The notes beneath the pieces are model-generated. The model saw nothing but the letters and a program-made list of their open reading frames with translations, did no database searches and was not told where the DNA came from. Made by a program: the position numbers and the translations under genes. From Nitrosopumilaceae archaeon (lineage in GTDB: Archaea > Thermoproteota > Nitrososphaeria > Nitrososphaerales > Nitrosopumilaceae): a DNA stretch of 64,000 nucleotides. Of this stretch, positions 37,317 through 42,901 are shown one piece after another. Within the stretch, counting starts at the first letter, position 1; each line of letters opens with the position of its first letter. The stretch spans positions 192,001 through 256,000 of the forward strand of contig CBDBMG010000002.1 in the NCBI GenBank assembly GCA_965207375.1, in the 5' to 3' direction.

Positions 37317-40300
37317 CTATGTTTGGATTAAATGTAAAGGCCAAGCTATTACTTCACCTACATTTATATAGTCACTTTCGTCAAATGGTGTTTTAAACAG
37401 TAATTTAGTTTTCTTGTGAACACTAGTTATTGCTACTTTTTGGAAAAGTAAAGGTATTGTCTTTCCATAAAGCATTGGTCCTTCAACTGCAATCCCATTT
37501 GCAACCACTTTTCCATTGAAAAGTAGCTTCACAGAGGCTGTAGCAGAATATCGCATAAGATGGCAGTCAGCTGATTGAAGCAATAGAATTAGTAAAGGGT
37601 ATATGAACATAGAAAGCTTTGTATACCTTCAGGAACAGTTGGTTGGTTATCTTGACACTGCTGGTTGTTACTTGCAACTGCTAAATGATTAAAAAAACAT
37701 ATACGTAGTTTACAAAAGCATTAGCTTAAGGAAAACAGTTGCTACTCTAAATAAGTACTTATAGTAAGTAATATATACATGGTACGTATATGTATGTGTG
37801 AATGTATGGAGGTGCGTATATGACACCAATACCGATATAGCTGCTCCAATGAATTCATTATTGTATTGTTGCATTTTATACACAACATTTCATTACGTAT
37901 GTTCATCATATAGATTGCCTGCATGCCCTAGATAGCACACTTGTTGATGGTCCACTACTTTGCTAAAAAGGGATATCACATCCCCTAGATACTCTTTCAT
38001 TACAAATATAATATTACAAATAATGTTGATATAAATATTGGTATTGGTATCGGTGCCAATATATATAGCCATTTTGGTAATATTAGATATCGGCAAAAGT
38101 TGTGGTGGCAAGCCAAATATTTTTAACTGGATGTTCATTTACTTCTATTGTCAATGACTACGCTTGTATGTCACACTATGATGTGAGACCAATTCAAAGT
38201 CTGTGATAATAATGAAAAATACTGTAGTGCACCTCTAATGTACATACATTCACAGATGTACATACATTCACAGATGTACATACATACTTTTTCAAACATT
38301 TTACATCCAAAATGCCATAAATTTCAAATGCTTCCTCATATTCACTTAATTTTACCTTGTAGAACAATTTGTAGGCAATGAAAGAGCATTATGAGTTTTT
38401 AAGGAAAAATGGCAGGGTCAAATTTTATGTGAGAATTAAGAGGTACCCTTTTTGCAAATGGGGTCACACTAAACAAATGCAGATTGTCCCAGTCTAGGTT
38501 GCTGTCCCACTGCAGTAGTTACTGGTGGCTGTCCCACTGTTGTTGTTGCTGTTGCCACTGCTGTTATTGTTGGTGGTCGCTGTCCCACTGCTGTCATTGT
38601 TGGTCGCTGTCCCACTGCTGGTTGCTGTCCCAATGCTGTTGTTGTTGGTGTTCGCTGTCCCACTGCTGTCATTGTTGGTACGTAGCTGTCCCACTGCTGT
38701 CATTGTTGGTCGCTGTTCCACTGCTGTCATTATTGGTCGCTGTCCCACTGCTGTCATTGTTGGTTGCTGTCCCAATGCTGTCATTGTTGGTTGCTGTCCC
38801 AATGCTGTTGTTGTTGGTGGTTGCTGTCCCACTGCTGTCATCGTTGGTTGATGTCCCACTGCTGTCATTGTTGGTCGCTGTTCCACTGCTGTCATTGTTG
38901 GTCGCTGTTCCACTGCTGTCATTGTTTGTCGCTGTCCCACTGCTGTCACTGTTGGTCGCTGTCCCACTGCTGTCATTGTTGGTTGCTGTCCCAATGCTGT
39001 TGTTGTTGGTGGTCGCTGTCCCACTGCTGTCATTGTTGGTTGCTGTTCCACTGCAGCTGTCATTATTGGTTGCTGTTCCACTGCTGTCATTGGTGGTTGC
39101 TGTCCCACTGATACGTACATATATACAAAAAATATCAATCTGCATCATTTCCAATTAAGTAGATTAGTTATAATCACATCTCTATAAACAAATTTTATGA
39201 CATGAATTGGCTAATTGCAGTTATTTTCTCCCGTACTTTATGCATCTAGAAAATTGAACACACATGTATGTACGTACCTCTGAAACTGATTTGCTCTGCA
39301 TTTTCTAAAATAAGTCTCAAATTGGAAACTCCATAGTGAGAAGGTGGCTTAAAGTCAATATTTGGAGGAAAACCAACAACCTGTGATGCCTGTATGGAGC
39401 CATAAGGCACACGGGCATTGGGATCACCTGCTGCTAATGCTAAAGTAAAAACAACACCATTATGACTGGCTCTACAAAAACCCTCCATGTTCTCATGCAA
39501 ATTTTGAGAACTTTAAAATGTTTCTTGTAATGTTACAGACATTTGCATATTTATTGGCGTTAAAATGAAATTGATGCAACTATCAGTTTACAGTTAGTTT
39601 TGTGAGGCTATGTAAAATACACAAAAATGGAGGGTTTTCAGAGAGCCAGTCACTTAAATTAGGAGTGAAAAATTGAGGGATGTAAATTTGCAGATTTTGT
39701 AATTACTTGGATGCCTACAAAATTTCATCATCAAATTTGGATCTTTTCTACTAGAAAATTCAGGATTTTAGCCACCTGCAAAATTTATATCCTTTGCAAA
39801 TTTGTATGTGCAATTACACATGTATACCTAAACAGTGAATAACATACCATATTTAGAATTCAGCACACTCTGTACAGCTATGCACAGAGCAGTCTTATCA
39901 CCCTTAATATCCAATGAAGAACTACGAGATTCTAAACTCAAATTACCAAAAGGGAAGGTTTACAACTACGTATGTCATTTAAGAGTAAGATCTACATATA
40001 CAAAACATACGTGGCAAAAATAATGTTAATCAATTTTGTCTTAATCAGGGTATTTGATGCTGTATAGCGCACCATTGGCCCAATATAAACACTAAATGTT
40101 CCACCCTAGAATAACTACAGCTCCATTTTGGCACGAAATAATTTAGTTTTACAATTAAAGAGTCATTAATTATATTGGCCTACAATTTTTAACTGTGGCA
40201 CAGTGGACATGTAACTCTGAGCCAGTTTGGCTCAAAGTTAAACTCTTATATCAAAAACCCTGGTCCTTATCAGTATGCACCTTCAGAAAATACAGCAGAA

Positions 40301-42901
40301 GAAAAACGCCTTGAAAAATCAGAATTTTCACTCAGAAATTTGCATCCTTGTGCTGTACCACCATGGTAAACTTGATTGTTATTGTATACCATGTATACCA
40401 CTTGTATGTTGCACCTTTCTGCCCATTCAGCCTACACATAAAAAACAAAATATCACAGACCACTACAGCTATAGTACGTACGTATATACGTACTTCAGAG
40501 CAGGAGCTCATATGCACTTTAAGTCACAAAGGGCACATTGTGGTGCACGAGCTCCTGTTTAGAGTAGTAATTAAGTTTTCTGGACATTTTTTTACTGTAA
40601 TATGCACTATATATTAGAGCTGAAACAAATATCCGAATCCGTAGGATATCCGTTTGAAATCTACTATCCGGATTTAGATCCAGAACCCTTCAGGATAGTA
40701 GCTAATTATTTCAAGCAGTTTGAAATAGATTTTGAATTATCAATACTTTTTATAGCTACTGAAAGTGTTTAAAATTTATGTCAGTACTGTAAAAATATGC
40801 TTAAAGTACTTTATTAGTTGAACTTTAAGCATATCACAATACATCTAAATGTGTAAATTTAGATATAAATAGAAACCTGATGATGTCACTATCCGTAGGA
40901 TATCCGTGAACTATTATATAGGATCAGGATATCCAGATAGTAAATTCACTATCCGTTTCAGCTCTACTATATACGTATATATATTATAGTTTCACATGTA
41001 GTTATAATCTACCCCTGGGTCATACATCATCCAGTGTGCTAGCATGAGCTAGTAATGCCACTGGTCAATTCCTTAAGCTAACATGCCTACATACACAAAT
41101 GCACTTATAAACTTACATGCACTTACATTTCACTTCTAAACTACATAGCTACCGTATACAGTGCAAAATTTTGGTTGTGAGCTTCAGAGGTGAAACATTA
41201 AGAGATAAAGGTTTGTAGGAAACACTTTGATGAATCGCTAGCCATTTGTCTAATTCATCAATGTTTTCTGCCGTCAAACTTTTGTGCTATACAGTAATTC
41301 ATTTACTACTTACGTAGCTGATGAAACCAGGGACAATGTGAGTGAAATGCAGCACATACCTTCGCAAAACAGGCACGAGACCGATAGCGAACAAGTACCG
41401 TGAGGGAAAGATGAAAAGCACTTTGAAAAGAGAGTCAAACAGTACGTGAAACTGTCAGGAGGGAAACTAACGAGTACATTAATCTTAAAATATAACTGTG
41501 GCACAGAAACCGGATTTTGATTATTTGTTTTCCCTTCAATCATCAGCAATCATTTTCCAGTTTAGTGTGCATTAATAGGCCGTGTGGTTGGCTAGGATAT
41601 GTGGCCAGATATATATAGAGGAACTGACAATATTACATTATGTCAGTGGAGATTATAACTCGATAGAAATGATCAGACAAAATTAAGCCATAAAACCATA
41701 ATTATTGTCACTTAATTTGGTCAGACATCCAATATATTTCCTTAGAGAATTGATGTTAAAGTGGTCAGACATTTAGCTGAAAATATCAAATGTCAAACTG
41801 TTATAATCCCCTCTGGGTGTAAGTTTGGTAATAACTCTCATATATACACACCACATACACTTTTCTGTATATTGCGAAGAATCCTGTGAGCTTCACCCCA
41901 ACTGTCTGTTGGCATGTCAGCTGGTGCTACCTTAGCAGCATCTATATACTGCTTCTTGTCCTCTTCTGACATTGCCTTCCACTTCTCTGCAGCTCTTTGA
42001 TTTTTTCTTTCAATGATGGTAATGCTTTCCCTTCTAATATTATAATGATGATATGTTACTTGTATACATACGTATAACTTGTGTGCTGTGTGCTTTGTGT
42101 CTATACTCTCTTCAAGTGCACTGCAATTTGCATGTTTACTCCTGAAATATGTGTACATGCAATTACCCTTACAATAACACTGGTGTATTTTTATTGCTAG
42201 GTTACCACACAGGTATACAAAACACCTCATCTATGTGTACATGTATGCATACATAAAAATACAAGTGGATACCCAATACAATAAAAACTTAACTATAGTG
42301 ATGCTATAGTGATGTGCGATACATATCAAAATATTCCAATTACATGCCTTGTATTGAGATACATATGATACATCAGCCTGTGTGTATCTAATGCAAAAGT
42401 TATCAACTAAAAGAGTATAAAAAATCAAAAAGCTTAAATGGTGTATGTATATAGCTCATTATTATCAACAATCAAACATATATATCATGACACATTAAAT
42501 TTTGCTCTACAGCTTTGTGTCATAGATGTGTACATATGTACACATATATCTTACTACATACCATCTGATTTGTAAAAATCGGCAGTGAATAAATTGTAGC
42601 AATTTGGCACCCTGATTTTTTGGGGTGGCTTAAGAGGTTCCTCCTTGTCATGATCATGAGCACGCTTCCGTTTTGCTTTTTCATTGCCAATCCAATTCTA
42701 AAAAGATACAATATACACATGTGGATACACGATTGAGAAAATCACCTTTATTACGGCTTCATCACACTTCAGTTGATCAGCAAGGCTCTTGATGGTCTGT
42801 GCCTGGTTGGAATTTACCCCGTTGTCATATGCTTGTACTAGAATTCTTTTCTGTTCCTCGGTAAACACAGTTCTGGGGTGGGCACCAGTGCTACAATGCA
42901 T
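37317..42901 (-). CDS. Transposon cargo gene: HDX-like homeodomain + HMG box + GTF2I-like repeat + 9-aa tandem repeat + Tnp1/En-Spm-like C-terminal domain (contains probable frameshifts)
   Basis: Exons 42746-42901, 42562-42697, 41859-42033, 40281-40431, 39848-39931, 39278-39439, ~38475-39107, 37627-37680, 37317-37571. Homeodomain: PRTVFTEEQKRILVQAYDNG...IK|NWIGNEKAKRKR. HMG: PNCYNLF...EKWKAMSEEDKKQYIDAA. GTF2I-like: VQSVLNSKY|ALAAGDPNARVPY...GFPPNIDFKPPSHYGVSNLRLILENAEQISF. C-terminal: VVANG...LYG...KVAI...GEVIAWP. Start codon and one splice donor are uncertain. Confidence 0.75.
38497..39110 (-). repeat. 27/30-bp coding minisatellite (~22 units; VGQ(R/Q)PTMTA)
   Basis: Tandem gctgtcccactgctgtcattgttggt(c/t) units with no spacers. 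Confidence 0.92.
40615..40966. mobile_element. hAT-type MITE in cargo-gene intron
   Basis: TAGAGCTGAAAC / GTTTCAGCTCTA TIR; TSD CTATATAT (right copy interrupted by a CGTA insertion); ATCCG subterminal repeats. Confidence 0.75.
41372..41467 (+). rRNA. ~95-bp 28S (LSU) rRNA fragment (pseudogene piece, conserved core between D1 and D2)
   Basis: GGCACGAGACCGATAGCGAACAAGTACCGTGAGGGAAAGATGAAAAGCACTTTGAAAAGAGAGTCAAACAGTACGTGAAAC is the conserved eukaryotic LSU segment; the flanks are not rRNA. Confidence 0.88.

Follow-up and report, generated by a model that had tools for sequence, protein, structure and literature searches.

The window analysed here, a 64,000-nt stretch of A+T-rich, eukaryotic DNA dense in mobile elements (contig CBDBMG010000002.1, positions 192,001 to 256,000), contains a 14,375-bp transposon of the KDZ (Kyakuja-Dileera-Zisupton) type at positions 29733-44107, with inverted ends and a target duplication. 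Inside this element, on the minus strand at 42901-37317, lies a second gene, referred to below as the partner gene, whose predicted protein consists, in this order, of an atypical homeodomain whose helix 3 carries WIGN, an HMG box, a part resembling the N terminus of TFII-I-family proteins (the middle segment), a single GTF2I-like repeat (I-repeat) and a small beta-barrel tail. We favour, with moderate confidence, the reading that this protein would act as a DNA-binding accessory factor of a KDZ transposon that is structurally intact and has moved recently. What is observed is the structure of the gene, its domains, its place within the terminal inverted repeats (TIRs) as well as the target-site duplication (TSD), and its recurrence in divergent KDZ elements; the accessory role is inferred.

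Reading of the splice signals gives the partner gene seven exons (Table 1) with a total of 1143 nt and 380 codons and no internal stop, from an ATG at 42901 to a TAG at 37319-37317. All six introns are bounded by GT-AG, and the first of them, between exons 1 and 2 (42745-42698), is 48 nt long and in phase 0. Splicing is predicted here from the reading frame, the splice signals and the collinearity with independent proteins, and at that level the stretch 42901-37317 is confirmed to read as a single seven-exon gene. The public contig sets that cover the locus (n=6) span the introns too. All peptide strings quoted in the initial annotation were found in minus-strand frames at their given positions; its exon set, however, was incomplete, as it had overlooked exon 4 (40431-40281), which follows the HMG box and precedes the repeat. 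Two of the introns hold repetitive DNA. A repeat of ~357 bp at 40610-40966, between exons 3 and 4, has a 94% identical copy at C4:723348-723699 (C4 being another contig of the assembly) and a very high summed contig depth in public runs, and is probably a miniature inverted-repeat transposable element (MITE). The minisatellite at 38494-39144 can be read through in several frames of each strand, with units such as ...TATNNDSSG..., and lies outside the gene model.

The homeodomain, the HMG box and the GTF2I repeat that had been named in the initial annotation were all borne out by matches to Pfam, to the Protein Data Bank (PDB) and by a family profile. Pfam was scanned exon by exon with six exons of the gene, each taken alone. 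Exon 1 matched Homeodomain (E value 8e-5; 22.8 bits, cut-off 22.9; covering only positions 3-45 of the 57 in the profile), exon 3 matched HMG_box_2 (E 6.3e-5, 24.0 bits, cut-off 22.4) as well as HMG_box (23.4 bits, cut-off 25.4), and exon 6 matched GTF2I (PF02946; E 1.8e-8, 35.0 bits, cut-off 27, profile positions 23-71 of 75), leaving three of the six exons scanned singly with no Pfam match. Among PDB sequences, the distinct matches of exon 6 at E≤1 were GTF2I, GTF2IRD1 or GTF2IRD2 repeats in 10 of 10 cases (best E 3.9e-5). The putative N-terminal helix of the I-repeat sits on an exon of its own that has no Pfam match; once the exons are joined, it lines up collinearly with the complete repeats of homologs; the equivalent of this exon 5 in a second KDZ element of the same genome, described below, weakly matches GTF2I profile positions 1-14 (E 0.28).

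Helix 3 of the homeodomain (W-I-G-N-E-K, on exon 2) has both W48 and N51. A family profile of the homeodomain and HMG box, with two homologs and window exons 1-3 as its rows, was searched against the PDB and found as its best match 2da4, 'Hypothetical protein DKFZp686K21156' (E 3.3e-9, 40.1 bits versus 32.1 for the next), followed by ZFHX3 (9.2e-7) and then Oct-1 POU (9.5e-6), with dozens of homeodomains matched. On the HMG side, TFAM box B came first (E 1.6e-5), and NHP6A, HMGB1, HMGB3 and SOX2 were matched at E values of up to 8e-3. The AlphaFold2 model of exon 7 (predicted local distance difference test score, pLDDT, 82.6) is a small all-beta, SH3-like barrel with no PDB match at E≤0.001; its best matches, KapB, CAP-Gly, PWWP and KOW, all had E≥0.15. 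No Pfam family was found for this tail exon at E≤10 or over the tail region of eight other relatives (nine of nine scanned). A Tnp1/En-Spm-type (DUF8039) identity of the tail was considered and is not supported, given the lack of a Pfam match and of any significant structural neighbour in the PDB.

Support for a role within the element comes from its recurrence. A search with tblastn and custom hidden Markov models (HMMs) over 4.3 Mb of the same genome revealed two further KDZ elements, whose transposases are 27-36% identical to that of the window. The second element (C3 ~77.5-101 kb; C3:77513-101084) has inverted ends and a convergent partner gene with separate exons for an HMG box, a middle segment, an I-repeat (Pfam E 2.6e-10, 40.9 bits) and the same tail; its identity to the window protein is 26-44%, as measured on the repeat exon and the tail. 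No homeodomain was seen between the inverted end and the first coding exon of this element, its partner gene beginning directly at the HMG box. The repeat of the second element groups by eye with those of the sponge-type proteins P0146, P0061 and P0067, which suggests that two old subfamilies coexist in this genome. The third element (C4 ~619.5-632.7 kb) has only an open reading frame (ORF) for the tail, 82 codons long (C4:621087-621335) and ~300 bp inside the inverted repeat, which could be a partner reduced to its minimum or the product of a deletion. Searched with HMMs for the repeat, middle and tail exons, the 4.3 Mb yielded no locus besides these at E<0.05; because the models were built from the same loci, it is only this absence of other matches that is informative. 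The partner or its tail thus accompanies three of three KDZ loci, and none of the partner loci is without a KDZ gene. Such presence in three divergent elements marks a conserved second gene rather than casual cargo, and 'cargo', the term used in the initial annotation, is too weak a label. The partner gene is a long-standing component of this KDZ lineage, with the tail as its most constant part and the homeodomain as the most dispensable one.

The same data bear on the view that the gene is a passenger, that is, a host transcription-factor gene captured by the element, without any role in transposition, and cargo in the strict sense. Fungal KDZ elements do carry extra genes, for TET/JBP dioxygenases, as described in the available part of PMC12730594; a homeodomain that is found in the window element and not in the second one looks as if modules come and go; and octocoral relatives of the protein, discussed below, have a different C-terminal domain. 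On the other hand, transposases as far apart as these three are each accompanied by a convergent partner that ends in the same tail, a pair of the elements keep the HMG box, the middle segment and the I-repeat on separate conserved exons between introns that can no longer be aligned, and no free-standing copy exists in the 4.3 Mb. Being kept across divergent elements in this way points to long co-inheritance under selection instead of a recent capture, and we consider a mere passenger unlikely.

The element itself is well preserved. Its ends read 5'-CA...TG-3', and the segments of the left arm (I1-I5) are 86-99% complementary to 43187-44107, with 93.97% over 928 columns in alignment; overall the two TIRs are 94-99% identical. 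The multi-exon transposase gene matched the Pfam families CxC1 (PF18802, E 3.3e-11) and KDZ (PF18758, best E 6.3e-10), the latter on four collinear exon ORFs that cover profile positions 51-99, 107-137, 140-169 and 164-212. It converges with the partner gene, tail to tail in one element, and the proposal that the partner gene adjoins a KDZ gene in a transposon is correct in that both are enclosed by the TIRs and the TSD. The transposase gene also contains, at 31896-32096, a short element whose inverted arms measure 44 bp; its summed contig depth is very high, and of its ~90% identical copies one, C3:93521-93719, lies within the second KDZ element and another is at C4:542804.

Contig C4 carries the same locus but lacks 40445-42321, and is taken to be the other haplotype because the flanks are identical. 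The deletion joint (40433->42322) is present in contigs of public runs X1 and X2, which belong to one study, and contigs that run through exon 3 are present in runs X4 and X5. One contig of run X2 represents the empty site, joining 29702 to 44111 via a single GCTCACT, and loose ends at 29705 in runs X2, X4 and X5 (two studies) agree with it. This empty-site allele indicates that the insertion is polymorphic and that both genes move as one unit. The KDZ element at 29733-44107 is structurally intact and recently mobile.

These alleles also bear on whether the partner gene is a silent or decaying copy, its frame open only through recent insertion and no protein being made from it. One allele has indeed lost exon 3 with a 1.9-kb deletion that breaks the frame, exon 2 joining exon 4 out of frame with either of its donors, and the introns of the gene hold the MITE and the minisatellite. 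The window allele, however, has its seven exons and six canonical introns with no stop over 1143 nt, its TIRs reach 99% identity, and an empty-site allele exists. Open frame, TIR identity and empty site together speak for a young and probably competent copy, so that decay seems quite improbable to us. That an ordinary, immobile host gene merely came to lie between inverted repeats beside a transposase gene would fit the fact that the 4.3 Mb contain no other identical copy (the C4 copy being the same locus on the other haplotype), yet it is very hard to reconcile with a perfect 7-bp duplication around the whole 14.4-kb unit, with a contig that bridges both flanks via one copy of the heptamer and with the same gene pair inside other inverted repeats, and we dismiss it.

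How the protein might work can be proposed from its parts. Homeodomains, HMG boxes and I-repeats bind DNA, and HMG boxes bend it. As an accessory factor, the partner protein would use its homeodomain and I-repeat to recognize sequences of the long terminal repeats or of the target, the HMG box would bend the DNA, and the beta-barrel tail might contact the transposase or chromatin; in combination, these modules could help to assemble or to regulate the transposition complex. This reading draws on the known functions of the modules, on their conservation in the element family and on the analogy to two-gene transposons. Several observations weigh against it. The exon 2/3 junction is ambiguous, with two in-frame GT-AG solutions, 42562/42058 (380 amino acids) and 42558/42033 (373 amino acids), the difference being seven residues of the HMG box, in its first loop. 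The second haplotype, without exon 3, cannot encode the full protein. The second element is without a homeodomain and the third has the tail only, which means that the DNA-binding modules are not all indispensable. The linkage of the partner gene to KDZ is established in one genome, that of the window. Finally, a motif search of the TIRs found no 8- or 9-mer at least four times and no 10- or 11-mer at least three times; the top 9-mer count was two, which is also the highest count in 100 shuffles. Neither TIR arm contains GGATTA or its complement TAATCC, and TAAT and CANNTG occur in the left TIR at the density of the element interior, with no excess. Without a repeated motif in the TIRs there are no candidate binding sites to point to.

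Among known transposons, the window element belongs with KDZ by its CxC1 cluster and KDZ domain. A transposase is paired with a separate DNA-binding or architectural protein in several systems, such as PIF/Harbinger with its Myb-like second protein, En/Spm with TnpA, and RAG with HMGB1. The window element would be alike to two-gene transposons (PIF/Harbinger, En/Spm, RAG1L/RAG2L) in this working logic of transposase plus accessory protein; no sequence relationship was found, and the tail had no Pfam match, Tnp1/En-Spm included, in nine of nine members. It shares the convergent arrangement of its genes with RAG-like elements, as these are described in the available part of PMC7204232. With fungal Kyakuja it shares the 7-bp TSD and the CA...TG termini, and with fungal KDZ elements the habit of carrying a second gene (there TET/JBP), according to the accessible text of PMC12730594. 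The same text reports fungal Kyakuja without TIRs, unlike the ~900-bp TIRs found here, and the second gene of the fungal elements encodes a dioxygenase, whereas that of the window encodes a predicted multi-domain DNA-binding protein.

Table 1. Features of the KDZ element, the partner gene and the flanking DNA (window coordinates).
Feature	Positions	Strand	Description
Left target-site duplication	29726..29732	.	GCCCACT, 7 bp; read directly
Left TIR	29733..30640	+	~900 bp, begins 5'-CACCCGC
KDZ transposase gene, multi-exon	31309..36305 (approximate)	+	B-box/ZZ-like zinc finger, CxC1 cluster, KDZ catalytic domain, long acidic tail
Exon 7	37317..37570	-	C-terminal beta-barrel domain and stop codon
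Minisatellite	38494..39144	.	Intron between exons 6 and 7; repetitive open frames, self-matches
Exon 6	39278..39439	-	C-terminal 50 residues of the GTF2I-like repeat
Exon 5	39848..39931	-	Linker and N-terminal helix of the I-repeat (VQSVLNSKY)
Exon 4	40281..40431	-	Middle segment, motif GGT..G..FL, resembling the N-terminal region of TFII-I-family proteins; no Pfam family
Stretch missing on C4 haplotype	40445..42321	.	1.9-kb deletion, removes exon 3; C4 junction 20104-20113, ~10 bp overlap
Exon 3	41859..42058	-	C-terminal two-thirds of the HMG box; alternative acceptor 42033; missing in second haplotype
Exon 2	42562..42697	-	Homeodomain helix 3 (NWIGNEKAKRKR), linker, start of the HMG box (PNCYNLF); alternative donor 42558
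Exon 1	42746..42901	-	Start codon and homeodomain helices 1-2, 52 codons
Right TIR	43187..44107	-	Complementary to left arm
Right target-site duplication	44108..44114	.	GCCCACT, perfect copy of left
Retroelement remains	47127-49248, 50975-51912, 62364-63953		Open frames

Beside this region, a reading of open frames also recognized retroelement remains, namely a reverse transcriptase of the long interspersed nuclear element (LINE) type, a fragment of another reverse transcriptase, and RNase H/integrase frames of Gypsy type (Table 1).

Relatives of the partner protein are found in other animals. The exon 6 profile, searched against 1.84 billion representatives, retrieved 231 proteins at E≤1e-3, and many further matches were single-exon ORF fragments. 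When homologs were scanned with Pfam, 9 of 10 were above the PF02946 cut-off, with up to 71 bits and full coverage of positions 1-75. The single-repeat relatives are collinear with the window model. The octocoral Dendronephthya gigantea has several loci with ~50% mutual identity (including P0151 and P0240) that encode the homeodomain, HMG box, middle segment and repeat, followed by a different tail. The same four parts occur in Poecilia species (P0068), in gene models that are fused to zinc fingers or, by eye, to a transposase-like piece. The ascidian Phallusia protein P0103 has the HMG box, middle segment and I-repeat; the sponge Dysidea avara protein P0146 combines middle segment and I-repeat with the tail type of the window gene; and in Acropora and Dicentrarchus the repeat stands alone (the Pfam check covering the Acropora protein only). 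Relatives of this architecture are thus present in an octocoral, a sponge, an ascidian and fishes, with all four parts in octocoral and fishes and some of them in sponge and ascidian.

The structural check that the annotation had called for was run on the octocoral homolog P0151 instead of the window protein, and the GTF2I fold was found: the AlphaFold2 model shows a three-helix homeodomain (pLDDT 73-84), an HMG-like helical part and the repeat, and Foldseek ranks 1-10 were ten GTF2I-domain nuclear magnetic resonance (NMR) entries, with E values from 8.6e-5 to 6.1e-3 and template modelling (TM) scores, normalized to the target, of 0.60-0.73. The octocoral-type relatives P0240, P0245, P0249 and P0250 have another conserved C-terminal domain (...LPVY...EPYWLF.. 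PG...GYWLDK...) with no Pfam family, and P0250, a Logan/ENA ORF with this type of tail, is on 38 contigs. Two candidates were discarded: the insect protein P0016, in which 15 stretches had been listed, has no Pfam GTF2I match and is a low-complexity artefact, and the metagenome match L006 to the repeat profile was put down to chance, as it comprises 20 residues inside a long unrelated frame on a G+C-rich bacterial contig.

Proteins with more than one repeat were looked up by name in 15 cases. Thirteen of them are vertebrate, 12 being named GTF2I, GTF2IRD1 or GTF2IRD2B and one being an unnamed camel protein; the others are from a crinoid (P0027, Anneissia japonica), with four I-repeats and C2H2 fingers, and from a sea urchin (P0042, Lytechinus pictus), with two I-repeats and a chromodomain, so that multi-repeat architectures extend beyond vertebrates. 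The statement that I-repeats are mainly known from vertebrates holds for the literature that was found but not for the proteins themselves, since repeats recognized by Pfam are present in proteins of sponge, coral, ascidian, crinoid and sea urchin. Invertebrate I-repeat proteins are already in public protein sets, some of them automatically named 'GTF2IRD1-like', and at the database level I-repeats outside vertebrates are not new. A survey of transcription factors counts 15 GTF2I in human, one in one tunicate and none in amphioxus or C. elegans (as given in the available part of PMC8122590).

The likeness to the TFII-I family is not confined to the repeat. When eight single-repeat sequences, and no more, were combined into a middle-segment profile, it matched 13 multi-repeat proteins ahead of their first repeat (residues ~42-109; ~42-95 in vertebrate GTF2IRD1, GTF2IRD2B and GTF2I) and a fourteenth, P0094, at residues 148-187. 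In the small set of 176 sequences to which the E values apply, five matches had E≤3.7e-4 and 10 had E<0.01; they include shark and fish GTF2IRD1 (2.9e-5 and 9.9e-5) and elephant GTF2IRD2B (3.7e-4), and the values for bird and caecilian GTF2I were 0.008 and 0.023. The homology thus appears to comprise an N-terminal segment plus a repeat. In addition, P0066, an ORF fragment from genomic sequence that shares 58% identity with the first repeat of a caecilian GTF2I (P0011), starts its match at G-K-A-L-G, which is the start of exon 6, although the 3' ends do not coincide; this suggests an intron position common to the transposon partner gene and a GTF2I-type gene. The window protein and the TFII-I family are alike in the PF02946 match, the 10 of 10 GTF2I-type PDB matches, the fold seen in the homolog and the N-terminal segment. 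They differ in that the vertebrate proteins have two to seven repeats in tandem, whereas the window protein has one, preceded by a homeodomain and an HMG box, followed by a beta-barrel and encoded by a transposon. With its single repeat, the window protein stands outside the TFII-I gene family, though repeat and N-terminal segment are common to both. An unrooted tree (LG+G4) of 39 repeats over 75 profile positions, which sampled 6 vertebrate and 13 single-repeat proteins of 239 and left out isoforms, partial repeats and other vertebrate proteins, placed vertebrate and single-repeat sequences on opposite sides with an ultrafast bootstrap (UFBoot) value of 42, or 70 when one fragment is moved to the vertebrates; because of this weak support and the lack of a root, no direction can be read from it.

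As for HDX (highly divergent homeobox), an orphan homeobox family of vertebrates, the structure that best matched the family profile, 2da4, has the same unusual WIGN helix 3 and D-N-G-M-T loop as the partner family, and we take this entry to be human HDX. Literature searches, PMC2211742 included, gave no confirmation of that identity. The D-N-G-M-T-S-type loop of 2da4 has the same extra length as that of the octocoral homolog and aligns with it without gaps, whereas the loop of the window homeodomain is three residues shorter than the octocoral one. The claim of an HDX-like homeodomain thus gains from the profile match and the WIGN motif, but exon 1 alone prefers the ZFHX3 homeodomain (2da1), with 2da4 not among its PDB matches at E≤10, and the claim hangs on 2da4 being HDX. 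A word-index search with the octocoral homeodomain retrieved only the query itself. According to the accessible part of Holland et al. (PMC2211742), HDX is placed tentatively beside the POU class and is listed without invertebrate orthologs; POU homeodomains rank third among the PDB matches of the family profile.

The initial annotation had also proposed that HDX-type homeoboxes and I-repeats originated in, or were spread by, such transposons. This is consistent with the spread over taxa and with the N-terminal homology, although the repeat tree leaves the direction open, and it is plausible that GTF2I and HDX arose from transposons of this kind. More specifically, and as a tentative possibility only, the TFII-I family and HDX might be two domesticated pieces of one ancient metazoan KDZ partner protein, HDX deriving from the WIGN homeodomain and TFII-I from the middle segment and I-repeat, the repeat having been multiplied in tandem later. 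What favours domestication is that proteins of the partner type are present in sponge, cnidarian, tunicate and fish as well as in the window genome, that the multi-repeat proteins are mostly vertebrate (13 of the 15 named), and that the homology reaches past the repeat, with one intron position apparently in common.

In the literature searched, which did not extend to the founding KDZ/Zisupton papers and supplements, nothing was found that links the I-repeat or HDX to KDZ elements or to a transposon partner gene; no paper pairs GTF2I with KDZ, Kyakuja or Zisupton, and none names a source of the I-repeat outside chordates. The available parts of PMC12730594 and PMC12062965 make no mention of a homeodomain, HMG or GTF2I partner.

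In summary, the window element reads as a two-gene DNA transposon with a putative DNA-binding accessory protein, the evolutionary implication of which is open and testable. GTF2I and GTF2IRD1 are dosage-sensitive genes behind much of the Williams-Beuren phenotype, as set out in the available part of PMC3493543. The presence of a GTF2I-type repeat and a putatively HDX-like homeodomain in one conserved mobile-element protein offers a concrete and testable source for both. The partner protein would be, as far as the literature searched goes, the first accessory protein described for animal KDZ elements, and it may provide a handle on how the poorly understood KDZ transposases find the ends of their elements.

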